64,000 bases of DNA from Acidobacteriota bacterium (GCA_022072205.1 JAJVID010000004.1:10242-74241), one strand, 5' to 3'; shown: positions 2,046 to 50,991, counted from the stretch's first letter. Notes: generated from the letters alone by a model not told the origin. Program-made: numbers and translations.

Positions 2046-3983
2046 TCATCGCTCCTTGCCAATCGCCTCGCCGATCACACCACCAATCGCCTTCAGCAAT
2101 CTCTCGGCGTTGTAAGGCTTCGGCAGAAATGTCTTGACGCCCAACTCGGCGGCTTCCGCGGCCCGCTCGCCTTCAGCCAGCCCGCTGCTGGCGATGATCC
2201 TGACCTGCGGGTTGATCTTCTGCAACTCGCGAATCATTGCCGGGCCGTCCATCTGCGGCATCATCATATCGGTCAGCACCGCCTCGATCTCGTCCTGATG
2301 CGCAGTGTAAAGCGTTACGGCCTCGGCCCCTTCGCGCGCCACGAGCACGCGGTAGCCGAATGCTTCCAGAGTCGTTCTGGTGATTTCACGAACAGACGCT
2401 TCATCGTCCACCACCAGAATCGTCTCGCCGTGACCGGCGGGCAGATTGGAAAGGGCTGCGGCGGCTTGCGCCGTTTGCGCCGAGGCGATGGCCGGAAGGT
2501 AGATTCTGAATTGGGTCCCCCGGCCTGGCTCGCTGTAGACGTTGACGAACCCGCCGTGGCTTTTCACTATGCCTTGCACGGTCGAAAGCCCAAGCCCCGT
2601 GCCCTTGCCCTGTTCTTTCGTGGTGAAGAACGGGTCGAAGATTCGATCCAGAACTCCCGGCGGGATTCCCGTGCCCGTGTCCGTGACGCTGATGAGCGCA
2701 TACGGCCCCGGCCTGGCTTCGTGATTCATTCGCGCGTAATGCTCGTCGAAGAAGACGGTCTCCGCCGCGATGGTCAGCGCGCCGCCCTCTGGCATCGCGT
2801 CGCGGGCGTTGACGCAGAGGTTCATCAGCGCCTGGTGCAACTGCGTTGGGTCGCCGCTGATGGTCGCCAGGTCGGGCGGCAGCGAGTGTTTGATCGTTAT
2901 GTTTTTGGGAAAGGTTTCGGCGAGAAGTTTGGCGATCTCCTTGATCAGATGTTTGGGTTGAAGCGTGATCCGCTGGCCTTCGACTCCGCCTCTGGCGAAC
3001 GAAAGCACCTGTTTGATCAGATCGCCGCCGCGTTCCGCGCTCTGCCGGATGACTTCGAGCATCCGCTGGCTGCTCTCGTCCGTGAGTCTCATCTGCAACA
3101 ATTGAACTCCCGTGGTGATCGGCGAGAGGATGTTATTGAGGTCGTGCGCGATGCCGCTGGCCAGCGTGCCGATGCTCTCCAGCCGCTGCGCGCGCAGGAA
3201 CTGGGCTTCGAGCCTTTTTCGCTCCGTGATGTCGGTGTTGATGGCGAGGTAGGATTTTGGCTGCCCGTTCGCGTCGCGCACCAGCGTCCAGCGGCATTCA
3301 GCGACTACTTCCTTGCCACCCTTTGTGGCTTGCCGCAATTCACCGCTCCATTCCCCTTGCTCGATCGCCGCGCGCTTCGCATCTTCAAACTGTGAAAAGT
3401 CGCCGCGATAGATCAGGTCTTTGATGTCGCGCCCGGCCGCCTCTTCCGCCGTCCAGCCATAGATGCGTTCGGCGCCCTGGTTCCAGAAGAGGATGCGGTC
3501 GTCCAGGCCGCGGACGAGGATGGCGTCCCGCGCGTAATTGAGCAAAGCGGCTTGTTCGATCAATTTCTCTTCCGCTCGTTTGCGTTCAGTGATGTCGCGC
3601 AGGATCACGGTGAAGAGCTTCTGCCCGTTCGCTTCGATTTGCGAGATCGAAGCCTCGATCGGAAACTCTTCGCCGTTGGCCCGCAAGCCATACACAGCTC
3701 CCAATGATCCCATCGTGCGTTTGGTAACTTGCGTTTGGCCGAATTCCCTGATGCGGCGCCGGTGAGCGTGGCGGAATCTTTCGGGAATAAAGTGATCGAG
3801 CGGTAGTCCTAAAGCCTCTTCGGCGGAGCAGCCGAACATCTTTTCGGCCGCCGCATTGAAAAGCACGATGCGTTGCGCGCCGTCAACCGTGACGATGGCG
3901 TCCATCGCCGATTCGATGATCCAGGCTAGAGCTTCCTTGTCGAATGCCTGCTGCATCTGACAGTCTCCTTGGATAATGGCCAC
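2046..3983 (-). CDS. Cytoplasmic hybrid sensor histidine kinase: two PAS domains, HisKA, HATPase_c and a C-terminal receiver
   Basis: PAS-like repeats ([17 protein letters not shown] linkers), the H-box [14 protein letters not shown]-box DTGTGI/GLGLS and a C-terminal receiver ([13 protein letters not shown]...). There is no TM segment. The more likely start is the ATG near 3958, which has an AAGGAG RBS. Confidence 0.9.
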
Positions 3984-4041
3984 GTAACGTAACGAATTTA
4001 TTCGCTACGTCACGTAACGAATAAATTCGTTACTACGTGGC
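3979..4041. repeat. Palindromic repeat element family A, copy 1 (CCACGTAACGTAACGAATTTATTCG...CGAATAAATTCGTTACTACGTGG)
   Basis: Near-perfect inverted repeat of about 25-nt arms, seen directly, lying immediately upstream of the kinase start. Related ends (CCACGTAG...CTACGTGG, AACGAATAA) recur at 5887-5946 and 40676-40838. Confidence 0.7.
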
Positions 4042-4102: not shown

Positions 4103-4303
4103 CTACCAGACCGCCCGCAAATTGTAGAGGTTTGAAGGCGAGGGCGCGGTTGGCGCGCACAATGCGTGAATCGAGCGATTCACGCAGATGCCGTCTTCAA
4201 TCGCGTCGAGGAGCGCCTCCCAGGCCGGAGGCGGCGCATCCTCGCCCGCTTGCGGTGACGGCGGTACAGGCAGCGGGTCTTTCTCGTTCATGGCCGTTTT
4301 CAA
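4103..4303 (-). CDS. Possible small proline-rich ORF between the response regulator and kinase genes (doubtful)
   Basis: A 66-aa ORF whose start overlaps the upstream RR stop (ATGA). No recognisable domain, and its composition could be a GC artefact. Confidence 0.15.
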
Positions 4304-5751
4304 CCAGGCGCATCAGCGCCACTTCCTTCGAGTTTCTTCAAACGATAGCGCAACTGGTCCCGCGAAATGCCGAGCAGTTCCGCCGCCCGCGTTTGGTTGC
4401 CGCTGCTGCGCTTCATCGCCTGCTCCACCAGGCTCATCTCCACCGATTCTAGCTGAACTCCTTCGGGCGGTAGACGGAAAAGTTCGACCAGAGTAGCTCT
4501 CGTGACTGCCTGACCGCGCTCGGTCGCAGCCGGCGCTTTGGCCGGCTCTTTCGTCTGTGGCCCGAACTGCGCTCCGGGCGTGACGCCGCGCGGCAGCCAG
4601 GCGCCGGTGATCAGGTCGTAGTCTTCGAGGGTCATCGCCCGCTCGATCACATTTCGCAACTCGCGGACATTGCCCGGCCACGGATACTGCCGGAAAATCT
4701 CGGCCACCTCCGGCGACAGCCCGGCAATGCGTTTTCTCAGTTTTTCATTGAAGTTGTTGATGTAGTAATCGGCGAGCAGCAACACGTCATCGCCGCGTTC
4801 GCGCAGCGGGGGCAGATCAATCTGAATCACCGAAAGGCGGTAGTAAAGATCGAGCCTGAATTTTCCGGCTTCGCTTTCGCTTTTGAGGTCGCGGTTGGAG
4901 GCGGCGATTATCCGCACGTCGAGCGGAATGTCTTTCAACCCGCCGACGCGCCGGAACGCGCCCTCTTCGAGCACGCGCAGCAATTTTGCCTGCAAGCCGA
5001 TCTCCAACTCGCCGATTTCGTCCAGAAAGACGGTCCCCCCTTCGGCCTGCTCGAACAATCCTTCTTTGCGCCCCTTGGCGTCGGTGAAGGCGCCTTTTTC
5101 ATAGCCGAACAATTCGCTCTCGATCAGCGTCGCGGGGATCGCCGCGCAGTTGATGGCGACGAACGGACGGTCGGCGCGCCGCGAGCCGTAGTGAACGGCT
5201 TTGGCGACCAGGTCTTTGCCCGTCCCGCTCTCGCCCTGCAGCAGCACCGACGAGGCTTCGCTCTCGGCGACTTTGCGTGCGAGTTGAATCATCTTCTTCA
5301 TCGCCGGAGACTGGCCGATGATCTGGTCGAAGCTGAATTCACGCGCCCGCTCGCGGCGCATCTGGTGGACCTCTTTACGCAGCCTGCCGGCCTCGATGCC
5401 GTTGCGGATCGTGACCTGAAGCTCGTTGAGGTTGATCGGCTTGCCGATGAAATCGTAAGCGCCGCCGCGCAAGGCCGCGAGCGTGTCTTCGACGAGCACA
5501 TTGGCTGTGATCATAATCACCACGGCCTGCGGCTGGCGGTTCTTGATCTCCTTGAGCGCATCCAGACCCGAACCGTCGGGCAGATTGATGTCCAACAACA
5601 CTGCCACCGGGTGATCCGACTCGAACGAATCGAGCGCGCCAGCGACTGTGCCCGCCTCGATCGGCTCGTAGTCCCATCCGCGCAAGGCCTCATTGAGCGT
5701 CCAGCGGATCATCGGCTCGTCATCAACGATCAGAATCTTTTCCTTTGCCAT
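4300..5751 (-). CDS. Sigma-54-dependent Fis-family response regulator (NtrC-like enhancer-binding protein)
   Basis: Receiver domain ([15 protein letters not shown]-box [13 protein letters not shown]). AAA+ sigma54 activator with Walker [15 protein letters not shown]-type [15 protein letters not shown] and ASNRDL. C-terminal Fis HTH ([18 protein letters not shown]). Confidence 0.9.
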
Positions 5752-5886: not shown

Positions 5887-5946
5887 CCCCCACGTAGCAA
5901 CGACTTTAGTCGTCACGTCATGACTAACGTCGTCACTACGTGGGGA
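5887..5946. repeat. Palindromic repeat element family A, copy 2 (CCCCACGTAGCAACGACTTTAGTCGTCACG / CGTCATGACTAACGTCGTCACTACGTGGGG)
   Basis: About 60-bp imperfect palindrome in the divergent intergenic region between the NtrC-like regulator and the decaheme cytochrome gene. It shares the CCACGTAG..CTACGTGG termini with the other copies. Confidence 0.65.
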
Positions 5947-6372
5947 GACGCAGAGATGGCAGACCAGTCAGAAAAATGTGATTTTCCGCAATCGTCGGGA
6001 AGTATTCCGCAGCTGAGAGGCTTAGCTGAGAGTTCGATCCGGCGTGATCCCGTTGAATTCGATGAACGCCAGCGAGATTCGTTGAGTCTCTTCGACGAAG
6101 ACCTCTATCGGACTGCGCGGAACAACGATTGCATTGATGTTAGATGGCTGCGCGGAATGGCGCTGGCTCTGCCGGTTGGCTGTGCGCTGGATCACGGTTA
6201 CGCGTGTTGCGCATCACGGTCTGTTCGCAACCTCTCAGTCAGGATTGAATAGCAACTCTTTTGCAGCAGTAACACAGTTTGGTTTGTCCGTAACCAGCGG
6301 CGAAACATTCCGCAATCAACCTGAAAGTTACGCTAACACGCTGTAATTTTTCGCAATCAAAAGGAGCAGCTT

Positions 6373-7461
6373 ATGCGAACTCTGAAGGTAGGTCTGGTGA
6401 TAGTTTTCTGTCTGGCGGCGCTGACGCCTGCAATCTCGACGCGAGTCGCGGCGTTGACCACGACGCTGGCTCAGGGCAAAGCGTCGCAGGAAAAGTCCGG
6501 CAAGGCTAAAGACGCCGGGCAATCGAAGCAAACTCCGCCGGCGCCAGCCAGCCAGTTCGTCGGCAGCGAATCCTGCGCCGAATGCCACGGCGCCGAAGCG
6601 ACGCATTACGCGCTGACGGCGCACAGCAAAACCAGGCTCGGCAACGGCCCGGTTGACCAGCGCGGCTGCGAAGCCTGCCACGGCCCGGCTAAAGGTCACG
6701 TGGACTTTTACCTGCAAATCCAAAAATTGAACGAAGCCGGCAAGGAAGACGAGGCCACGACGCTGATGAACGACGCAGCCAAAGCCGCCGCCGCCAAAAT
6801 GCTTTCGTTCAAGGAAATGGCGCCGGCTGAAGCTTCGGCGACCTGTCTGAAATGCCACGAAGGCTCGCAAGGCCGCAGCGAGGAGCGGTTCAATTTCCGC
6901 CGCAGCGAACATTTCCGTCACGGCCTGTCGTGCAACGATTGCCATTCTTCGCACGAGCCGAAGCGGACGGAATTTTTGCTGAAGGCGACCGAGCCGAACA
7001 TGTGCTACCAGTGCCACGCCGACCAGAAGGCGTCGTTCGCCAAACCGTTCCACCACAAAGTTCCCGAAGGCGGAATGAAGTGTTCCGATTGCCACAACCA
7101 GCACGGCAGTTTTACGAGCAAGTCGCTGCGCAATTCGGCGGGCGGCGATTCGGCCTGCGTCAAATGCCACGCCGACAAACAGGGGCCGTTCATTTACGAG
7201 CACGCGCCAGTCAAAGTCGAAGGCTGCCAGGCGTGCCACACGCCGCACGGTTCGACCAATGCGAAATTGCTGACACGCAACATCGTCAAATTCCTCTGTC
7301 TCGAATGCCACTCGAACACGCCTGGCATTCCCGACACGGACGGCACGGGCGTGGGCGTGGGCACGCCCAGCTTTCACGACATCAACAACCCGCGCTACGC
7401 CAACTGCACTACGTGCCACTTTGAAATTCACGGGTCGAACAAAGACCCGTTCTTCCGCTAA
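6373..7461 (+). CDS. Periplasmic decaheme c-type cytochrome, MtrA/MtoA/PioA/DmsE family (porin-cytochrome conduit component)
   Basis: Signal peptide ([20 protein letters not shown]) and 10 CXXCH motifs in 362 aa: CAECH, CEACH, CLKCH, CNDCH, CYQCH, CSDCH, CVKCH, CQACH, CLECH, CTTCH. The size and heme count match MtrA/MtoA. RBS AAAGGAG upstream. Confidence 0.8.
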
Positions 7462-7462
7462 A

Positions 7463-7539
7463 CGAGTCAGTACCGCGAGCGGTAGCGAGCGCCGCTCTAA
7501 GAGCAAACCCGCTCGCTACCGCTCGCGGTACTGACTCGA
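7463..7539 (+). other. Long intercistronic stem-loop (about 28-bp arms) between the decaheme cytochrome and porin genes
   Basis: CGAGTCAGTACCGCGAGCGGTAGCGAGCG ... CGCTCGCTACCGCTCGCGGTACTGACTCG, seen directly. It ends 16 nt before the porin start codon and its RBS. Confidence 0.6.
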
Positions 7540-7554
7540 AAAAGGAGGCTGAAG

Positions 7555-9687
7555 ATGAAAAACAGCAATCAATCAACGCTTGCGCGGCTCTCCCGGACTT
7601 TGGCGAGAGCGGCGATGTCAGCCTTGCTGATGACGTTCGGTTCGGTCGTGTTCGCCCAAAGCAGCGTCGAGAAGAGCGAAACCAGCCAACAGGCCAGAGC
7701 GCCTGAAAGCGAACTGGAACGCGCCAAAGCCATTGTTACCAAACCGAATGAAAACAAACCCGCCAAGCCGGAGACAGGTCGGACGTGGGGCGTTTACTCG
7801 ACCACAACTACGCTTGAGATTGGCCATCGCTTCGTTGACACGGATGGCAGCCGCGACCGCTATCTTTCGGACGTGAACGTGCGCGACGGTTTCCGCGTGC
7901 TCGAATATTCGACGGACATGCGCGCTCAACCCGGCGCGGGGTTGCTCTTTGATTTCATGAAAGCCGACGTGTCGAACGCCGGCGGAGATCAAAGCCAGAC
8001 TTTCTCGCTGCGGATGGACAAAACTCGCGCGTACCGATTCGATGGCAATGTGCGGCGCTTTAATTACTACCGCTCGCCGGGTCCGAACTTCGCGCTCAAC
8101 TTCCGCAACCACGATCTGCGCCAGCAAATTTCTGACTTCCACCTGAAGCTCTTCCCGCAACGCGCCGTGCGGATCAACGCCGGTTACGGACGCAGCCTGG
8201 CCAAAGGACGTTTCAATCCCAGCTACAGTTTTGAGCGCGACTTGTTCCAGTTGCTGGGCGAATCGCGCTGGGAGGCGAACGACTACCGGCTCGGACTTGA
8301 CGCGACTTATCGCCGGTGGGATTTTGGCGTCGAGCAGCTTTACCGCAATTTCCGCAACGACCCGCAGATCACTTCCACGACGGGCGTCAACCTCGGTCTC
8401 AACCCGACCGACGCTGGCCGGATCAGCTTTCTGGATCGTGACACGCCGTTGCGCGCGCGCTCGCTGGTCACGCGGGCGAGCGTTCGCGGCTCGATTGCCG
8501 AACGGCTGCACGTTGTGCTGCGCGGTTTGCACGACGATGAGAGGATGCGCGCGCCTTACCTGGAAACGACCAGAGGCACGGCCAGCAACAACGCCAACAT
8601 CATTTCGCGCGCGCTGACTGGCGATGGCGTCGTCGAAAGGCCAGGCGCGGTCGTTGACGCCGGCCTCACTTTCGACATCAACAGGAATTTCTCGCTGAGC
8701 GACACATTCCGTTACACGTCTTTCCGCATCGCCGGAGACGTGGCCACGCTTCAAACCAGCGTTCAGCAGACGGGAACAGCCGCGCCTCAAACGATCATCA
8801 CGACGACCGCCGGCGACCGGTTGACGAAGTGGAATTCCTATTGGAACACGCTCTCGCTGGACATGAACTTCGGGCGGAAGTTTTCTGCCAATCTGGGCTG
8901 GCGCGCGATGCAGCGCGAGATCACGCTGGATGGCTTGTACACATCGCGGACATCTACTTCGACCACAGTCACTACTCTGGCTGATGATGAAAGCGAATCG
9001 GTAGACACGCATGCCTTCGTCGGCGGATTCCGCGTGCGCCCAACCGACCGGTTCAGCTTCATCTTCGACGTGGAGCACGGGACGAACAACAACGCCTTCG
9101 TGCGCATCAACCCGCTCGAATTCACCCGCTTCCGCGCGCGGGCGCAGGCGCAGATCACCGACAAACTCGCCTTCATCGGCGCGTTCACCTCGACCGACCG
9201 TCTCAACCCGACGCCGCAGGTCGAAAACGAATCGGACGCCAGAAGCTACACGGTGGCGGTCAACTGGGAGCCGAAATCGAGGGTTTACGTTGACGTCGGT
9301 TACGATTACCACGACCTGTTTTCGACGGCCAACATTCGCTACTTTCTGGCCAGCAATCAGGAGCGGCGCGGCAATTCGCTTTATTACGCGCGGCTGAATT
9401 CGGTCTTCGCCAACACGCGGTTCGGGCTGACCAACCGGCTCGACCTGCTGATGGTTTACTACTACGTGATGGATCGCGGCGCGCCGTCGGTCACAATCGG
9501 AGCGAACGATTTTGTTTCGGCGTATCCGCTGCGCAGGCATAACCCGGAAGTCCGGCTGGCCTATCGCTTCAGCAATCACGTAACCGGCAACCTGAGCTAT
9601 CGGCATTACAGTTACAACGAGCGTGAATTCGCCGTGCAGGATTACCGAGCGAACATTCTGACGACCAGTTTGCGCTTCACTTTCTAA
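7555..9687 (+). CDS. Outer-membrane beta-barrel porin of an MtrB/MtoB/PioB-like porin-cytochrome complex
   Basis: 710 aa with a signal peptide ending AQS and an amphipathic Y/R/N/T-rich composition typical of an outer-membrane barrel. The C-terminus ends ...LTTSLRFTF. It lies immediately downstream of the decaheme cytochrome with its own RBS (AAAAAGGAGG). The antisense 662-aa ORF 7618..9606 has no such features. Confidence 0.7.
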   Translation: MKNSNQSTLARLSRTLARAAMSALLMTFGSVVFAQSSVEKSETSQQARAPESELERAKAIVTKPNENKPAKPETGRTWGVYSTTTTLEIGHRFVDTDGSRDRYLSDVNVRDGFRVLEYSTDMRAQPGAGLLFDFMKADVSNAGGDQSQTFSLRMDKTRAYRFDGNVRRFNYYRSPGPNFALNFRNHDLRQQISDFHLKLFPQRAVRINAGYGRSLAKGRFNPSYSFERDLFQLLGESRWEANDYRLGLDATYRRWDFGVEQLYRNFRNDPQITSTTGVNLGLNPTDAGRISFLDRDTPLRARSLVTRASVRGSIAERLHVVLRGLHDDERMRAPYLETTRGTASNNANIISRALTGDGVVERPGAVVDAGLTFDINRNFSLSDTFRYTSFRIAGDVATLQTSVQQTGTAAPQTIITTTAGDRLTKWNSYWNTLSLDMNFGRKFSANLGWRAMQREITLDGLYTSRTSTSTTVTTLADDESESVDTHAFVGGFRVRPTDRFSFIFDVEHGTNNNAFVRINPLEFTRFRARAQAQITDKLAFIGAFTSTDRLNPTPQVENESDARSYTVAVNWEPKSRVYVDVGYDYHDLFSTANIRYFLASNQERRGNSLYYARLNSVFANTRFGLTNRLDLLMVYYYVMDRGAPSVTIGANDFVSAYPLRRHNPEVRLAYRFSNHVTGNLSYRHYSYNEREFAVQDYRANILTTSLRFTF

Positions 9688-9689
9688 AC

Positions 9690-9754
9690 AGTACCGCGCG
9701 CGTCAGCAAGCGGCTGATCGATGAGACATCCGCTTGCTGACGCGCGCGGTACTT
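9690..9754 (+). other. Second intercistronic stem-loop (CAGTACCGCGCGCGTCAGCAAGCGG...CCGCTTGCTGACGCGCGCGGTACT) between the porin and monoheme cytochrome genes
   Basis: About 24-bp perfect arms, seen directly. It shares the AGTACCGCG core with the 7463-7539 hairpin. Confidence 0.6.
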
Positions 9755-9774
9755 CATCGAAGGAGAAAACATCC

Positions 9775-10128
9775 ATGAATTCGTTTGCCAAAAGAACAGT
9801 GGCCGCCATCGTCGCCACGACGGTTTTGACATTCTCGCTTTCTGCGTTGATGTCCTCGCCCGCCGCCCTCGCTTTTCAAAGCGTGAAGAGTCTTTACCAA
9901 TCGAAATGCGCTGTCTGCCACGGAAATGACGGCGCCGCCAACACTGCCAAAGGAAAAGAACTGAAAGTCCGCAGCTTCCGCTCGGAAGAGTTCAAGAAGA
10001 TGACGGACGCCAAAGCGATGGAAGTCCTGATGAAAGGCAAGGGCAAGATGGAAGGATACGAAAAGACAATTGGCAAGGAGAAATTGGAGCAATTGCTCGC
10101 TTACTGCCGCGAGTTATCGAATAAGTAG
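9775..10128 (+). CDS. Monoheme class I c-type cytochrome (MtoD-like periplasmic electron shuttle)
   Basis: Signal peptide, a single CAVCH motif and Met-rich C-terminal half. The likely start is the ATG at 9775 after the GAAGGAG RBS; the track's 9721 start lies inside the hairpin. Confidence 0.75.
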   Translation: MNSFAKRTVAAIVATTVLTFSLSALMSSPAALAFQSVKSLYQSKCAVCHGNDGAANTAKGKELKVRSFRSEEFKKMTDAKAMEVLMKGKGKMEGYEKTIGKEKLEQLLAYCRELSNK

Positions 10129-10149
10129 TGCCCAAGCGGAGGAAATACA

Positions 10150-10779
10150 ATGACGGGGAATACTACAATCCTGGTAGCTGTGATCCTGTTCAGCATAGCT
10201 CTGATCGCCTGGCTGGTTTTGCGCCCGTCAATCACCGCCACGCGCGCCGGCAAGATGCTGGCGTTCGTGGCGCTGCTGATCTTTCCGGTCCTGGCCGGAG
10301 GGATGGGCGTGAGCATGCAGCTTGAACATTCCAAGACGACCCAGTTTTGCCTCTCCTGCCACGTGATGGAGGATTACGGCAAAAGCCTGCGTGTGGACGA
10401 CCGGAGCTTCATTCCGGCGACCCATTTCCAATACAACCTCGTACCGCGCGACCAGGCCTGCTTCACCTGCCACACCGATTACACAATGTTCGGCGACTTC
10501 AACGCCAAGCTGCGCGGGTTGAAGCACGTTTACGCTTACTACGTGGGAACTCCGTCGCAGCCGATCAAACTCTACCAGCCGTATAACAACCGCGAATGCC
10601 TGCATTGCCATCTCGGCGCGCGCGGTTTTGAAGAATCGGAAGCGCACAACAAAGACCCGCAGGCGATGTCACGGATGAAGCTGAACCAACTGAGCTGCTC
10701 GACCAGCGAGTGCCACAACATCGTGCATAACGTCCAGCAGTTGAAAGAAGCTACATTCTGGAAGGAGCCGTCCAAATGA
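10150..10779 (+). CDS. NapC/NirT/CymA-family membrane-anchored tetraheme cytochrome c (quinol dehydrogenase)
   Basis: N-terminal TM anchor (ILVAVILFSIALIAWLVL) and the motifs CLSCH, CFTCH, CLHCH, plus a fourth atypical site CSTSECH (CX4CH). About 200 aa, as in CymA/NapC. GGAGGA RBS. Confidence 0.8.
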   Translation: MTGNTTILVAVILFSIALIAWLVLRPSITATRAGKMLAFVALLIFPVLAGGMGVSMQLEHSKTTQFCLSCHVMEDYGKSLRVDDRSFIPATHFQYNLVPRDQACFTCHTDYTMFGDFNAKLRGLKHVYAYYVGTPSQPIKLYQPYNNRECLHCHLGARGFEESEAHNKDPQAMSRMKLNQLSCSTSECHNIVHNVQQLKEATFWKEPSK

Positions 10780-10988
10780 AATCGCAGCTAACGAAGATCG
10801 AGAAACGAATACGCCTGGCGGGAATCCTGCTGATCGCCGGGTTGCTGGTCGAGCTTGTAACTTTGCGCTGGTCGCACCCGACGGCGTTCCTGTTCTTTCT
10901 GCTGCTGGGCGGAACGCTGATGGCGCTGGGAATCATCATTTACCTCTTCTCGCTCGTCTCAGCCGAAAGCAAACCGGCGCCGGAATGA
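10776..10988 (+). CDS. Small two-TM membrane protein translationally coupled to the CymA-like gene
   Basis: 70 aa with two hydrophobic helices. The start overlaps the upstream stop (ATGA). Confidence 0.35.
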   Translation: MKSQLTKIEKRIRLAGILLIAGLLVELVTLRWSHPTAFLFFLLLGGTLMALGIIIYLFSLVSAESKPAPE

Positions 10989-13483: not shown

Positions 13484-13963
13484 AATGAAACCAAACCTGT
13501 GAGTCTGTTTGCGGCATTGTTTTCACCTCAACCCCAGCGCAGCGATTCTATAGTTGCGATCGAATGAAACGGCAACCTGTGTGCCATTGAGATGATCAAC
13601 GCCAAACCCCGACTTACGACGCGCAAACCTCCGGGCGTCGCGTAAAGTTCCCCGGTTGGCGGCGCCTGATCGCGCAAAAACACACCGTGCGCGCGCGCTG
13701 GCTGGATTTTCATCCGCGTAAGGCGCAAAACCCGTCGGTTGCGCGGCGTCATAGGCAATCCCCATTTTGCCGAGTATGACAAGCCGCAAACGAAGCGCGC
13801 TGCGTGAAATTGCGCGAGAGATCGGGCCGGGCGCGGAAAATACCGCGATCAGTGAGCCATGACCGACCGCACATTCGCCACGAAATATGGGTCGTAGGCT
13901 GCCTGCTCTGCCTGGCTTGCAAGTTGCAGCGCAGCGACACAGACTCACTCAGGGAGAAAGAGC

Positions 13964-18302: not shown

Positions 18303-19112
18303 CTATTCAGCGCCGAGCCGTTTCCGCAACGCCTCTTTGACCTTCACACCTCTGAAGTAAGCCTCATCGGCCTGTTTGCGCACGCTTTCGAGATTGAACG
18401 CGTGCCATTTCACCCGGGCTTCGCCGAGCGTCTCTTCCGCGAGCTTGAGGTCATTCTCTTCCACGCCGAGCGGCCAATTCCGCCTCCGACCTTCGGCCAA
18501 CAGGAGCCGCGCCCAATTGACCACGGCGTCGGCGCGTTGCAGCGCCAGCATCGTCTCTTTGGCGCGCGCAGGGATTTCAGGCCGCGGCTGGATGAAGTTG
18601 ATCGAGTCGTGGCACTGGGCGCAGAGGTTGGCGGTTTCGGTCGGCGAGTAGATCACCTTCGTCGCCATATGCTCGTGGCAGGTGTTGCAGCTCGGACCCA
18701 GGCCGATGCCTTTCAGCCGCTGGTAATGCGCGCTCTGCACGAACGAACTCACGACGTTTTGATGACAGGCGTTGCAGGTCTCGGGCTGATTCTTCCAGTG
18801 AAGGCGGCTCTGCGGATTCGACGAGCGCAGGACGCCGACGTGCGCCTTCTCTTTGTCTTTCGCGGACGGTTCACCGCCATGACATTTCTCGCAACTGACG
18901 CCGCGCTCTTCGTGGCTCGAAAGCTGCCATTCCAGGTAACGGCTGCTTACGCCGAGCGGCTCGAGCAACTGCGAATGGCAGTTGACGCAGTTGTTGTTTT
19001 TGTACGAGGGCTTGGGCTGCTGCGCCGCGCCGATCTGATTCGCGCTCACAAACCAGAACATTCCAGCGGCCAACAGCAAGGTCAGCAAACATAGTTTTCT
19101 TCGGCGGTTCAT
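18303..19112 (-). CDS. Membrane-anchored pentaheme c-type cytochrome
   Basis: N-terminal TM/signal-anchor and five CXXCH motifs: CVNCH, CEKCH, CNACH, CNTCH, CAQCH. It sits 18 nt upstream of the phosphotransferase gene. Confidence 0.8.
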   Translation of the reverse strand: MNRRRKLCLLTLLLAAGMFWFVSANQIGAAQQPKPSYKNNNCVNCHSQLLEPLGVSSRYLEWQLSSHEERGVSCEKCHGGEPSAKDKEKAHVGVLRSSNPQSRLHWKNQPETCNACHQNVVSSFVQSAHYQRLKGIGLGPSCNTCHEHMATKVIYSPTETANLCAQCHDSINFIQPRPEIPARAKETMLALQRADAVVNWARLLLAEGRRRNWPLGVEENDLKLAEETLGEARVKWHAFNLESVRKQADEAYFRGVKVKEALRKRLGAE

Positions 19113-19369
19113 ATTCGCTCCTCACGGAATCGGTTACATCAACCAGAACTGAGCCTCCAATCCTGTGTTTTTCCCTGCGCATCCTTGCGCGGCCGGCGCG
19201 GAAATTTTCTCATCACCGGCATTGAAACCCCTAAACTTCAAACTCCAGCCTCGGATTGAGCAAGCTTTGTGCCGCGCTGATCGAGATCTCTTCACGGCAC
19301 GCTGGTTGCTCCCTCTGAATCAGCGGACAGTTCCTTTATCACTCACAGCCGTTTGCAGATGCGTGCGAC

Positions 19370-19438
19370 GTGGCAGTAGCCCGACCGTGAGGGAGGGCTT
19401 GATGATCAAGCCCTCCCTCACGGTCGGGCTACTGCCAC
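19370..19438. repeat. 69-bp perfect palindrome (GTGGCAGTAGCCCGACCGTGAGGGAGGGCTTGATGATCAAGCCCTCCCTCACGGTCGGGCTACTGCCAC)
   Basis: Seen directly, with about 33-bp arms around the central TGATGATCA. It lies in the divergent intergenic region between the pentaheme cytochrome and the PNPOx-like gene. Confidence 0.8.
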
Positions 19439-19485
19439 GGGTCGCATCCAAGCGCAAACCGCTATAAGACGCAGGGAGGCGACAG

Positions 19486-22600: not shown

Positions 22601-22887
22601 CGTTGTCGCCTTACTTCATTCCGCCTTCCAGTCAGTTTGGTTTCTTCCTTGTTGTCTCCTCACCCGCAACGCTCCGCCCTCGAGACGTTGCAACTCTCAA
22701 GCCAGTTCAGCTTCTCTTCGTTTAGGCCGGGTTGATGGGCAGGTTTGTGATCTCCTCTGCGCAAAGTTACTCACCCTCCTGTGCAAGAGCACGCAGCCTC
22801 GAACCGATTGAGACAGCCAGATGCTCATCCGGCGTGGCTCAGGTCGGCATAGTGATTGCAACCTTTTGTAGCAAGGAGGAAAAAGTC

Positions 22888-32192: not shown

Positions 32193-32323
32193 AACATTGG
32201 GACACCAGCCACAGAGATCACAGAGGACACAGAGGTGAAAGGCGGGTGTGCATTATCTCTGTGCTCTCTGTGATCTCTGTGGCTAAAAACGTTTGTCCCA
32301 ATCTTGTATGGTCTGATTTAGCC
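32175..32323. repeat. MITE-like repeat family B, copy 1 (termini ...CTAAATCG / GATTTAGCC, internal CAGAG repeats)
   Basis: ctaaatcgaaacacaaaacattgggacaccagccacagagatcacagagg...ctctgtgatctctgtgg...gtttgtcccaatcttgtatggtctgatttagcc has internal inverted CACAGAG repeats. It is homologous in layout and sequence to 62342-62493. Confidence 0.7.
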
Positions 32324-36215: not shown

Positions 36216-36386
36216 CTCTTCCTCCCCTGGTTAAGTGATTGCAGTCTCTCCTCAATGGCGCAAGACATATGCCATCCCGTGTTGGGCGGGCCTTCTCAAC
36301 ATTTCGGCCTGCCACGCGGGCCGCAATCGCGGGCATTCAGGCGCTGTGCGGGGGAACTTACGCAACGTGGGAACGATTACTCAGCC

Positions 36387-40666: not shown

Positions 40667-40675
40667 GGTATCACA

Positions 40676-40838
40676 CCACGTAGTAACGAATAATGGTCTT
40701 TGAGTAAATAACGCAACACCAGCGTAGGGGCGGGTTTTCCCCGCCCAGGCCCCTCAATAGCGGATCCGGGCGGGGAAAACCCGCCCCTACGCTGGTGTTG
40801 TAGTTAATTTTCAAACGCCATTATTCGTTACTACCTGG
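40676..40838. repeat. Composite palindromic element: family-A-like termini (CCACGTAGTAACGAATAATGG / CCATTATTCGTTACTACCTGG) enclosing a GC-rich hairpin
   Basis: Outer inverted repeats seen directly. The inner palindrome 40724-40800 is CAACACCAGCGTAGGGGCGGGTTTTCCCCGCCC...GGGCGGGGAAAACCCGCCCCTACGCTGGTGTTG. It lies between the OMF and adaptor genes of the efflux operon. Confidence 0.75.
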
Positions 40839-40854
40839 TTTTTCTGAGGAAGAG

Positions 40855-50813: not shown

Positions 50814-50866
50814 GGGGCTTCTCCTTCGCAATTTCCTGGGGACACATCGCTGATAAAAAATGCAGC

Positions 50867-50938
50867 ATCGTAGGGGCGAGTTTTCCCCGCCCAAGCCTCG
50901 GTAGCAGATGCGGGCGGGGAATACCCGCCCCTACGATG
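50867..50938. repeat. GC-rich palindromic element, second copy of the hairpin nested in the 40676-40838 element
   Basis: CATCGTAGGGGCGAGTTTTCCCCGCCC...GGGCGGGGAATACCCGCCCCTACGATG. It is followed by ttgttgcacattcaaacgcc, similar to ttgtagttaattttcaaacgcc after the 40724-40800 copy. Confidence 0.75.
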
Positions 50939-50991
50939 TTGTTGCACATTCAAACGCCGTCAACGATGCGCGCCCAAGCTTTTCTATTCTG

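Follow-up and report, generated by a model that had tools for sequence, protein, structure and literature searches.

Porin-cytochrome conduits are the main known route by which Gram-negative bacteria respire solid and polymeric redox substrates or oxidise them, and their genes serve as markers of iron cycling. The closest described systems are the MtrAB pair of Shewanella, solved as the MtrCAB complex (PDB 6R2Q), and PioAB(C) of Rhodopseudomonas palustris, associated with phototrophic Fe(II) oxidation. The MtoAB-MtoD-CymA cluster of Sideroxydans lithotrophicus has been proposed to oxidise Fe(II) (PMC10654088), and a review treats the GSU2204 family as an MtrB/PioB-type barrel (PMC13188914).

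Here we describe a cluster of five genes in the window, by which we mean the whole stretch of 64,000 nucleotides that was analysed (Table 1). The host is a soil bacterium of the class Blastocatellia in the Acidobacteriota, as judged from 55 related genome loci and the names on the protein matches, in agreement with the first-pass annotation of this DNA, which had taken the genome to be acidobacterial. The core of that annotation, an MtrAB/MtoAB-type pair accompanied by a class I monohaem cytochrome c and a NapC/NirT-type membrane cytochrome, was supported. With a probability that we put at about 0.8, leaving aside the direction in which electrons flow, the five genes specify an MtrAB/MtoAB/PioAB-type porin-cytochrome conduit that crosses the outer membrane and is connected to the quinone pool.

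Cluster layout and the decahaem cytochrome

The five genes are closely set on one strand and each start is preceded by a GGAG-type ribosome-binding site, as had been described. Gene orders were compared among 55 Acidobacteriota loci, with denominators that vary by gene pair. At least 55 Acidobacteriota genomes, counted at species level, have kept the cluster, the decahaem gene being located directly 5' of the barrel gene in 46/46 loci and the monohaem cytochrome c gene directly 3' of it in 38 of the 49 loci compared. At the sequence level, the family scores and the conserved gene order exclude chance as an explanation for the cluster, and the comparison establishes an invariant decahaem-barrel gene pair in modular association with predicted quinone-pool-linked modules.

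The decahaem protein has a signal-peptide-like N-terminus and exactly the ten CXXCH motifs that had been counted before, with three Paired_CXXCH_1 stretches recognised by Pfam. It passed the cutoff of the NCBIfam model TIGR03508 (244.6 bits, cutoff 192.2), with residues 64-358 matching profile positions 1-257 of 258, and the MtrA chain of the solved MtrCAB complex (6r2q_A) matched residues 64-357 at an E-value of 1.4e-32. These matches bear out the earlier placement and, as judged by homology, make the protein a member of the MtrA/DmsE/MtoA/PioA family. No other ORF in the 64-kb window contained more than five CXXCH motifs, in line with the earlier statement that no outer-surface decahaem of the MtrC/OmcA type is encoded.

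Table 1. Coordinates of the cluster and of neighbouring features in the window.
Feature	Coordinates	Strand	Remarks
Five-gene cluster	6373-10988	+	tight spacing
Hybrid PAS-PAS histidine kinase with receiver	2046..3983	-	PAS x2, HisKA, HATPase_c, Response_reg
Sigma-54-dependent response regulator, NtrC/AtoC type	4300..5751	-	divergent; Response_reg, Sigma54_activat, HTH_8
Candidate sigma-54 -24/-12 element	6158..6172	+	TGGCGCTGGCTCTGC; pattern match, weak
Decahaem c-type cytochrome, MtrA/DmsE/MtoA/PioA family	6373..7461	+	362 aa; signal peptide; 10 CXXCH
Perfect hairpin, decahaem-barrel gap	7463..7538	+	29-nt arms; dG -67.9 kcal/mol, z -12.9
Predicted outer-membrane beta-barrel, remote MtrB/PioB homologue	7555..9687	+	710 aa
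Long hairpin, barrel-cytochrome c gap	9690..9753	+	dG -55.7 kcal/mol, z -9.8
Periplasmic class I monohaem cytochrome c	9775..10128	+	117 aa; signal peptide; CAVCH
Membrane-anchored NapC/NirT-family cytochrome	10150..10779	+	209 aa; PF03264
Two-helix (hydrophobic) membrane protein	10776..10988	+	70 aa; ATGA start/stop overlap with NapC-like gene
Pentahaem cytochrome	18303..19112	-	269 aa; 5 CXXCH; Cytochrome_C7/NNT matches

The two long hairpins on either side of the barrel gene had been singled out as conspicuous. Both are real, as judged from folding energies and z-scores, but they are not special to the conduit cluster, since perfect hairpins of equal length occur between genes elsewhere in the window (5888-5945, 19369-19439, 32207-32284, 40675-40839 and 50863-50941); hairpins of this type are common across the host genome. 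The hairpin in the decahaem-barrel gap is absent from most relatives, in which the gap is about 21 nt, and one relative (L003) carries a hairpin of another sequence at the same place. The closest relatives (L001, L003 and L008) have kept the hairpin in the barrel-cytochrome c gap, with a single compensatory change (GTCAGC/GCTGAC versus GTAAGC/GCTTAC); this hairpin is followed by no T-run, and no Rfam family reached threshold for it. The hairpins flanking the barrel gene could split the cluster into separate transcripts.

The barrel protein and its relation to MtrB

The signal peptide of the barrel protein ends in VFA, followed by QS, and the protein has a conserved N-terminal extension of about 45 residues (AQSSVEKxETSQQAR...) and ends in SLRFTF, with a terminal phenylalanine. 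It contains zero cysteines, hence no CXXCH or Cys, and no Sec. The AF2 model, which is of moderate confidence (pLDDT 71.9, pTM 0.61), is an all-beta barrel as had been predicted, with a strand count of 26-28 that is not fixed and a weak N-terminal third. The model has no plug domain, and no TonB-dependent-receptor domain was found in the protein by Pfam. A Foldseek search with the model yielded TM-scores of 0.57/0.62 to MtrB and of at most 0.38 to every other chain, making MtrB the best and the only global structural match. The model thus predicts a beta-barrel with the MtrB fold.

At the level of single sequences the window barrel matched neither MtrB itself, nor the family models PF11854 and TIGR03509 at E-values up to 0.01-0.1, nor NF041027 of the GSU2204 family, and a narrow profile of 32 barrel sequences gave no significant match to one MtrB sequence (Prob 4%). 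Using hhalign with an alignment of 63 sequences of the barrel family against 31 Shewanella MtrB sequences, we obtained a collinear match over 522-523 columns, corresponding to MtrB residues 97-694 (Prob 97.7-98.0%, E 1.4e-12 to 2.2e-13), whereas the reversed and block-shuffled MtrB alignments used as controls yielded E-values of 0.0017 or worse and scores of no more than 37. On the strength of these profile alignments, the 710-aa protein qualifies as a remote homologue of MtrB with detectable common descent. The name MtoB-type given to it by the first-pass annotation holds only as remote homology and fold, because the barrel fails the MtrB/PioB models.

The wider barrel family comprises 1,256 representative clusters at E <=0.001, and all related records list the barrel as a hypothetical protein. 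Four of the 63 wider-family members matched the TIGR03509 MtrB_PioB model, reaching only an E-value of 1.5e-4, one scored 18.5 bits against PF11854, below the gathering score of 23, and 26 yielded sub-threshold matches to NF041027 (best E 4.2e-10, cutoff 350 bits). Among 269 barrel-family proteins, CXXCH was found only in P0150, where it is N-terminal, in P0168, which is a 243-aa fragment, and in P0217, in which a PF13442 cytochrome c domain is fused to the C-terminal end of the barrel.

The conduit type is already known, whereas this barrel variant is new, unannotated and highly divergent. Surveys that demand both genes would miss the system because the barrel escapes the MtrB/PioB models, even though standard models would pick up the cytochrome half. 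A more far-reaching and rather doubtful proposal is that the 710-aa family represents a large, unnamed sister lineage of MtrB/PioB that is centred on the Acidobacteriota and linked to GSU2204, with members that pair with MtrA-type decahaems and with a docked, in some cases fused, class I cytochrome c and that swap their quinone modules, either the NapC-like protein with its 70-aa partner or Rieske/cytochrome b with multihaem cytochromes. If so, widespread soil Blastocatellia that are supposed to be strictly aerobic and oligotrophic would trade electrons with iron or humic matter, as lithoheterotrophic oxidisers of Fe(II) or humics or as hypoxia survivors under sigma-54 and two-component control, a capacity that present-day annotation of iron genes would overlook, the barrel being unrecognised. 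Independently of this proposal, testable hypotheses on how such conduits are wired follow from the exchange of inner-membrane partners and from the fusions of barrel and cytochrome.

Quinone link, regulation and direction of electron flow

The ORF of the monohaem cytochrome opens at 9721, and the start in Table 1 is the ATG that is preceded by a ribosome-binding site, which was also used by independent gene calls on two Logan contigs. The protein, with its one CXXCH, scored 39.2 bits against PF13442 and carries a conserved KGKGKM(E/P)GYEK motif, the methionine of which is a probable haem ligand. Its best PDB relatives were Kuenenia KustA0088, c-552 and a CcoP domain; class I cytochromes of the c-552, c6 and CcoP types are usually high-potential. 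The earlier term MtoD-like fits a small class I monohaem protein with a signal peptide in such a cluster, as a label of class and role only.

The NapC-like protein scored 35.9 bits against PF03264 (gathering score 24.1), with residues 39-196 matching positions 11-172 of 174. Its haem motifs are three CXXCH and one CX4CH, all four of which are conserved in 14 orthologues, and it has two N-terminal hydrophobic helices versus one in the NapC/NirT/NrfH/CymA pattern. Named equivalogs (NapC, NrfH, TorC) were rejected, every score being far under its cutoff: 37.9 versus 134.2 bits for NrfH, 27.4 versus 310.6 for NapC/NirT and 25.0 versus 478.2 for TorC. There was no PDB relative at E-values up to 0.1. 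Of the earlier description as a CymA-like tetrahaem NapC/NirT cytochrome, the family assignment stands but the canonical fourth motif does not, and CymA-like denotes class and role rather than specific relatedness.

The 70-aa gene, which the overlap suggests is translationally coupled to the NapC-like gene, lies beside it in 26/27 loci, the lone exception being truncated at the end of the locus; it was also called on a Logan contig and its product matched no family in Pfam or NCBIfam. The NapC-like gene is missing nearby in approximately half of the related loci, where the cytochrome c gene is followed by genes for a Rieske protein (PF00355), cytochrome b (PF00033) and cytochromes with 6, 9 and 11 haems. 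This apparent swap of Rieske/cytochrome b for the NapC-like/70-aa pair speaks for a connection from the quinone pool to the cell surface.

The candidate sigma-54 element is located about 200 nt 5' of the decahaem start. A much better YGGC-N8-TTGC is found at the same relative position in eight relatives (L012, L013, L016, L017, L030, L035, L053 and L054) and not in the closest ones, L001 and L002. The divergent response regulator, homologues of which adjoin the cluster in L011, L015, L025, L048 and L049, is a possible regulator of the cluster; it is adjoined by the histidine kinase, which also has homologues near the cluster in several loci. The pentahaem cytochrome is 44-59% identical to pentahaem proteins of related loci, whose genes are located directly 5' of the decahaem gene in 16/43 cases. 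The neighbourhood also contains genes for two USP, a DksA-like protein, PFK, Hsp20, a PNPOx-like protein and glycogen phosphorylase, and pattern matches to sigma-54-type promoters were seen directly 5' of the USP, PFK and glycogen phosphorylase genes.

In the conduit that we propose, the decahaem protein would be threaded through the MtrB-like barrel and form a haem wire across the outer membrane. The monohaem cytochrome c, probably with His/Met ligation, would dock on or near the barrel on the periplasmic side and exchange electrons with the NapC/NirT-type tetrahaem cytochrome of the inner membrane, if the carriers act in this order. The latter, together with its two-helix partner, would couple to the quinone pool as a quinol or quinone enzyme, and the extracellular partner may be iron or humics.

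As for direction, we mildly favour uptake, at roughly even odds, in which electrons from extracellular Fe(II) or reduced humics would be delivered to a terminal oxidase and the quinone pool. Uptake is favoured because no MtrC-like surface cytochrome is present in the 64 kb, because the periplasmic partner is a conserved class I cytochrome c of high-potential type, and because the lineage is otherwise known as aerobic. The first-pass annotation had argued for the uptake logic of Mto and Pio from the absence of MtrC/OmcA; this preference survives in a mild form, but MtoA and PioA do not separate into clades by function (PMC8805035) and sequence cannot settle the matter. It is quite possible, if at somewhat worse than even odds, that the same hardware runs outward under oxygen limitation, from quinol via the NapC-like/70-aa pair or, in other lineages, Rieske/cytochrome b to the conduit and on to Fe(III), Mn(IV), humics or a partner cell, thereby allowing an aerobic soil bacterium to survive hypoxia. 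Export is supported by the usual role, as quinol oxidisers, of both kinds of partner that the conduit can have, NapC/NirT/CymA-type proteins on the one hand and Rieske/cytochrome b complexes on the other, and by the cytochrome with 11 haems, of about 700 aa, that adjoins the cluster in some relatives. Up-regulation of the related Geobacter GSU2203 (OmcK)/GSU2204 with hematite and magnetite (PMC4070692) points the same way. Also in favour of export, the USP, DksA-like, PFK, Hsp20, PNPOx-like, glycogen phosphorylase, PAS kinase and sigma-54 regulator genes, with the sigma-54-type promoters, resemble a stress or hypoxia island. Against this, microaerobic oxidation of Fe(II) would be expected to come under low-oxygen control just as much. 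The absence of an MtrC/OmcA-type surface cytochrome from the window weighs against export, and so does the class I monohaem partner with its conserved Met motif, nearest to the c-552, c6 and CcoP types, which would be a poor relay to low-potential decahaems because such cytochromes are usually high-potential; known reducers rely on tri- or tetrahaem shuttles of low potential.

Two further explanations concern the pair itself. MtrAB-type modules are reused in Shewanella for extracellular DMSO reduction, and the best-scoring NCBIfam model of the decahaem protein carries the name DmsE family, so the pair might feed a dedicated surface terminal reductase such as a molybdoenzyme. We consider this very improbable: TIGR03508 is a subfamily model that spans MtrA, MtrD and DmsE, no reductase gene is located in or beside the cluster within the window, and the related loci inspected contain none, their neighbours being cytochromes, the Rieske/cytochrome b complex and regulators. 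Least credible of all is that the 710-aa protein is an unrelated large channel, of a transporter or usher-like kind, beside a soluble periplasmic decahaem with no wire across the membrane. The collinear 522-column match to MtrB vanished in the reversed and shuffled controls, the global TM-scores singled out MtrB, and neither a plug nor a TonB-dependent-receptor domain was seen; moreover, the decahaem gene was directly upstream at every one of the 46 loci, usually about 21 nt away, and barrel-cytochrome fusions occur in the wider family.

Soils are rich in Blastocatellia, which are usually considered aerobic heterotrophs. If a conserved path does join their quinone pool to the cell surface, this would alter the view of their part in the iron and humic redox cycling of soils and of their survival under fluctuating oxygen.

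Comparison with described conduits

With Shewanella MtrAB the locus shares a full-length MtrA homologue with all ten CXXCH motifs, the cytochrome-then-barrel gene order and a barrel for which MtrB is the best structural match. It differs in that the barrel is only about 12-15% identical to MtrB and does not match PF11854 or TIGR03509, that it has the conserved N-terminal extension, and that the CXXC invariant in MtrB of Shewanella (C42, C45) is missing, because the window barrel has no cysteine at all. Further, there is no MtrC/OmcA partner in the window, and on the periplasmic side a class I monohaem cytochrome takes the place of the tetrahaem STC/FccA.

The Sideroxydans MtoAB-MtoD-CymA cluster has the same complement of a decahaem, a barrel, a monohaem class I and a NapC/NirT-type cytochrome with no surface decahaem, in what we take to be another gene order. 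The window cytochrome c has the conserved Met motif and is nearest to c-552/CcoP-type proteins, and the NapC-like protein differs in its two N-terminal helices, the CX4CH fourth site and the dedicated 70-aa partner. Sideroxydans belongs to the Betaproteobacteria, whereas the window host is an acidobacterium. The R. palustris system is likewise an MtrAB-type pair with no surface cytochrome, but its partner PioC is a HiPIP instead of a cytochrome c, PioA presumably carries a long N-terminal extension that the window decahaem lacks, and the window showed no genes for phototrophy.

The decahaem protein also resembles GSU2203 (OmcK) of Geobacter sulfurreducens, scoring 210.2 bits against the family model NF041028, below its cutoff of 325. 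For the barrel, the likeness to GSU2204 is seen in the wider family, in the 26/63 members that match the family model and in the N-terminal CXXCH of P0150, whereas the window barrel itself has no NF041027 match and no CXXCH, Sec or Cys; membership of the GSU2203/GSU2204 families was thus rejected for both proteins. The Pcc systems of Geobacter (OmaB-OmbB-OmcB and the Ext clusters) follow the same logic of a periplasmic multihaem cytochrome, a barrel and quinone-linked inner-membrane cytochromes. They employ an octahaem periplasmic cytochrome, a smaller barrel of about 20 strands and a surface lipoprotein cytochrome, and to our knowledge they are not homologous to MtrAB, whereas the pair in the window is.

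The decahaem cytochrome, the barrel and their partners

The cluster at 6373-10988 consists of five plus-strand ORFs, and the same 117-, 209- and 70-aa genes were called on two independent Logan assemblies with an identical barrel protein. Both the co-directional gene group described in the first-pass annotation and its 362-aa cytochrome with ten CXXCH motifs were recovered. HMM placement of this cytochrome gave a full-length match of 244.6 bits to NCBIfam TIGR03508, the DmsE/MtrA-family decahaem model (curated cutoff 192.2), and 210 bits to the Geobacter GSU2203-family model, which is under the cutoff of 325. Residues 64-357 aligned at E 1.4e-32 with MtrA, which is chain A in the Mtr complex structure 6R2Q. 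From these matches, the decahaem is assigned to the MtrA/DmsE/MtoA/PioA family.

Features of the cluster and its surroundings (window positions)
Feature	Position	Strand	Remarks
Sigma-54 response regulator	4300-5751	-	
Sigma-54-type motif (weak candidate)	6158-6172		upstream of decahaem gene
Short direct repeats	6195-6225 and 6300-6360		GGATCAC...GAATCAC; T(T/C)CGCAATCAA, present twice
Decahaem cytochrome	6373-7461	+	362 aa; signal-peptide-like N-terminus; exactly ten CXXCH
Decahaem-barrel hairpin	7463-7538		dG -67.9, z -12.9
Barrel candidate	7555-9687	+	710 aa; signal peptide ...VFA|QS; C-terminus ...SLRFTF; no cysteine
Barrel-cytochrome c hairpin	9690-9753		dG -55.7, z -9.8
Monohaem cytochrome c	ATG 9775 (ORF opens 9721)	+	117 aa; signal peptide; GGAG RBS precedes ATG
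NapC-like cytochrome	10150-10779	+	209 aa
70-aa protein	10776-10988	+	ATGA overlap with NapC-like gene
Sigma-54-type motifs	13572-13586 (-), 13913-13927 (+), 22690-22704 (-), 36260-36274 (-)		TGGC-N8-TGC
Pentahaem cytochrome homologue	18303-19112	-	269 aa; helical C-terminal third; 7 kb from cluster
Other intergenic inverted repeats	3989-4033, 5888-5945, 19369-19439, 32207-32284, 40675-40839, 50863-50941		arms 22-72 nt, mostly perfect

The 710-aa protein had no match in Pfam, NCBIfam or, using phmmer, the PDB sequences, and every named homologue among 5.8 billion proteins searched was a hypothetical protein from Blastocatellia or Acidobacteriota. The AlphaFold2 model, for which 32 homologues were used (pLDDT 71.9, pTM 0.61), is an all-beta barrel whose long strands, about 26-28 in number, span the protein from residue ~80 to its C-terminal end. 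A Foldseek search with this model returned MtrB at TM 0.57/0.62 and all other chains at <=0.38. Searching 1.84 billion representative proteins with a profile yielded 1,256 relatives at E <=0.001; the named members of this wider family came from Pyrinomonadaceae and Bryobacterales.

For the profile comparisons, we used an alignment of 63 diverse members of the barrel family and one of 31 Shewanella MtrB sequences, all with PF11854, for which the query was the S. baltica sequence of chain 6r2q_B. A sequence of S. oneidensis MtrB, used for retrieval only, aligned end to end with this chain at 1400 bits. A narrower 32-sequence barrel profile gave no significant match to a single MtrB sequence (Prob 4%). 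The two broad alignments were matched by hhalign with Prob 97.7-98.0% and E 1.4e-12 to 2.2e-13 across 522-523 collinear columns, corresponding to MtrB residues 97-694. Since the signal needed the broadened alignment, we repeated the comparison, as a control for a composition artefact, with the MtrB alignment reversed or block-shuffled; the score dropped from 114 to <=37 (E 0.0017 or worse). Sub-threshold matches to NF041027, the GSU2204 family, were obtained for 26 of the 63 aligned members, and matches to TIGR03509 MtrB_PioB for four of the 63. The GSU2204 family is listed as an MtrB/PioB-type barrel in a recent review (PMC13188914). Together, the profile match with its controls, the structural match and the family-model hits argue that the 710-aa protein is a remote MtrB/PioB homologue beyond the reach of current family models. 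The earlier assignment to the MtoB/PioB/MtrB class thus holds for the modelled fold and the remote homology, but the Pfam and NCBIfam models remain unmatched.

In agreement with the first-pass annotation, the 117-aa protein belongs to the class I cytochromes c (PF13442); among solved structures it is nearest to KustA0088 and c-552 of Kuenenia and to the haem domain of CcoP. A KGKGKM(E/P)GYEK motif is kept across the orthologues and is consistent with a predicted His/Met ligation. The adjacent 209-aa protein had been described as a NapC/NirT/CymA-type tetrahaem cytochrome; it passed the Pfam NapC/NirT family model PF03264 (35.9 bits vs 24.1) but scored far under every NapC, NrfH and TorC equivalog cutoff, and 14 orthologues keep two N-terminal hydrophobic helices with three CXXCH motifs and one C-x4-CH.

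Gene order in related genomes

We scanned the gene context of the barrel using one genome per GTDB species, which yielded 55 loci, all from Blastocatellia/Acidobacteriota MAGs. The records of L004, L012, L016-L022, L026, L038 and L055 carry the titles "uncultured Heliomicrobium sp." or "Heliobacteriaceae", which look like a naming error at odds with the Blastocatellia affiliation of all close relatives. The decahaem gene was located immediately 5' of the barrel gene in all 46 loci with enough upstream DNA, usually with a gap of ~21 nt, and the monohaem cytochrome c gene immediately 3' of it in 38 of 49. A NapC-like gene was present somewhere in 27 of the 55 loci and was accompanied by the 70-aa gene in all but one of these (26/27). 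Loci without this pair instead had genes for a Rieske protein, cytochrome b and 6-, 9- and 11-haem cytochromes after the cytochrome c gene. Five of them (L019, L024, L032, L041 and L045) encode, 3' of the genes for barrel and cytochrome c, a ~700-aa 11-haem cytochrome, a 6-haem membrane cytochrome, a Rieske protein, cytochrome b and a 9-haem cytochrome; this set makes up a Rieske/cytochrome b complex that has multihaem subunits.

In 16 of 43 loci, a gene for a 270-aa pentahaem cytochrome lies immediately 5' of the decahaem gene, and in several genomes pentahaem, cytochrome c, NapC-like and 70-aa genes form a separate operon 3-8 kb away, beyond unrelated genes. The pentahaem homologue in the window is 44-59% identical to those of the related loci; it is a candidate periplasmic shuttle or surface partner.

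Fusions were also seen among the wider barrel-family proteins. In P0217 (894 aa) an MtrB-like barrel is naturally fused to a C-terminal PF13442 cytochrome c domain, and in P0150 (738 aa) an N-terminal CXXCH precedes the barrel, which resembles the layout of Cyc2-type fused cytochrome-porins. The locus counts, the exchanged modules and these fusions show a core made up of an invariant decahaem-barrel pair with a closely associated monohaem cytochrome, to which interchangeable inner-membrane modules of quinone-pool-linked types are added.

Intergenic hairpins and regulatory neighbourhood

The two long hairpins noted in the first-pass annotation are indeed very stable, but similar ones are common across the window. 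The decahaem-barrel hairpin is an insertion where most relatives have a 21-nt gap; in L003, a related locus, this place is taken by a hairpin that differs in sequence. The closest relatives keep the barrel-cytochrome c hairpin, with a single compensatory change, and other lineages have unrelated long hairpins at this position. Neither is followed by a T-run on the 3' side, and neither matched an Rfam family at threshold. A REP-like nature was considered: the arm motif GTACCGCGNGCG is common to both and occurs nowhere else in the window, with a count not above chance, and equally long perfect hairpins of unrelated sequence are present elsewhere. We therefore rejected the notion that the hairpins are specific to this system. 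The intergenic inverted repeats are of mutually unrelated sequence and so look like a genome-wide habit and not a single repeat family. The two hairpins are best read as ordinary intergenic stem-loops of this genome. They may act by stabilising the mRNA upstream or by partial termination of transcription, and this would fit the modular split seen in other genomes.

The weak sigma-54-type motif upstream of the decahaem gene has a strong counterpart at the equivalent position in one relative clade but is absent from the closest relatives, L001 and L002; it was rejected as the operon promoter and retained as a lead. The direct repeats in the same region are conserved with L001 and L002 and may be regulator binding sites. 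Across the window, TGGC-N8-TGC motifs number 24 against 13.8 expected, a count reached in 1 of 100 shuffles, and several lie 40-90 nt 5' of starts (USP, phosphofructokinase, glycogen phosphorylase and a 208-aa ORF). The enrichment and positions of these motifs, together with the sigma-54 response regulator and a PAS kinase, suggest a local sigma-54 regulon. The segment 11117-25044 encodes an orphan response regulator, a tandem-USP protein, a second USP, a DksA-like protein, PFK, Hsp20, a YtfJ-like protein, an AAA_33/APH-like kinase, a PNPOx-like protein, glycogen phosphorylase and a Tll0287-like monohaem protein. By gene content it resembles a stress, hypoxia or dormancy island, a set that may be akin to hypoxia regulons such as mycobacterial DosR.

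Direction of electron flow and known systems

The analyses show family identity, homology, fold and gene linkage, and the best-supported reading of the cluster is a trans-outer-membrane haem wire. Barrel insertion, carrier order, quinone coupling and substrate are inferred: the decahaem would sit within the lumen of the MtrB-like barrel, by analogy with the solved MtrAB structure, and the monohaem cytochrome c would link the wire to the inner-membrane NapC/NirT-type cytochrome and its 70-aa partner. A DmsEF-like reductase system carries low weight, TIGR03508 being a model for DmsE as well as MtrA, and so does an unrelated porin in the place of the MtrB-like barrel.

Uptake, in which extracellular Fe(II) or reduced humics would be oxidised, is mildly favoured as the direction of flow, with a probability of about 0.5. 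It is favoured because CXXCH motif counts revealed no MtrC/OmcA-like cytochrome among the ORFs of the 64-kb window, as had been claimed, because the periplasmic partner, which is conserved, belongs to a kind of class I cytochrome that usually feeds terminal oxidases, and because the Blastocatellia lineage is otherwise known as aerobic. Somewhat less probable, though still a serious contender, is the same conduit running outward under oxygen limitation. Quinol oxidation is the normal role of NapC-type and Rieske/cytochrome b modules, and the surrounding genes look like a stress or hypoxia island putatively under sigma-54 control. Outward flow would also agree with the related Geobacter GSU2203/GSU2204 genes, which go up in the presence of hematite and magnetite (PMC4070692). 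The position of the decahaem relative to MtrA, MtoA and PioA was dropped as a guide to direction, since MtoA and PioA form no function-specific clades in published trees and Mtr can run both ways (PMC8805035). The Mto/Pio preference of the first-pass annotation is retained in a mild form.

MtrA/PioA homologues have already been reported from Acidobacteria and a complete MtrCAB from Bryobacterales; our literature searches found no description of the Blastocatellia barrel family or its cluster. The barrel comes from the same stock as MtrB and would work like it, yet it fails the MtrB/PioB family models, has the CXXC motif of Shewanella MtrB missing and carries a conserved N-terminal extension. 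In gene complement the cluster mirrors the MtoAB-MtoD-CymA cluster of Sideroxydans (PMC10654088), whereas the accessory details differ.
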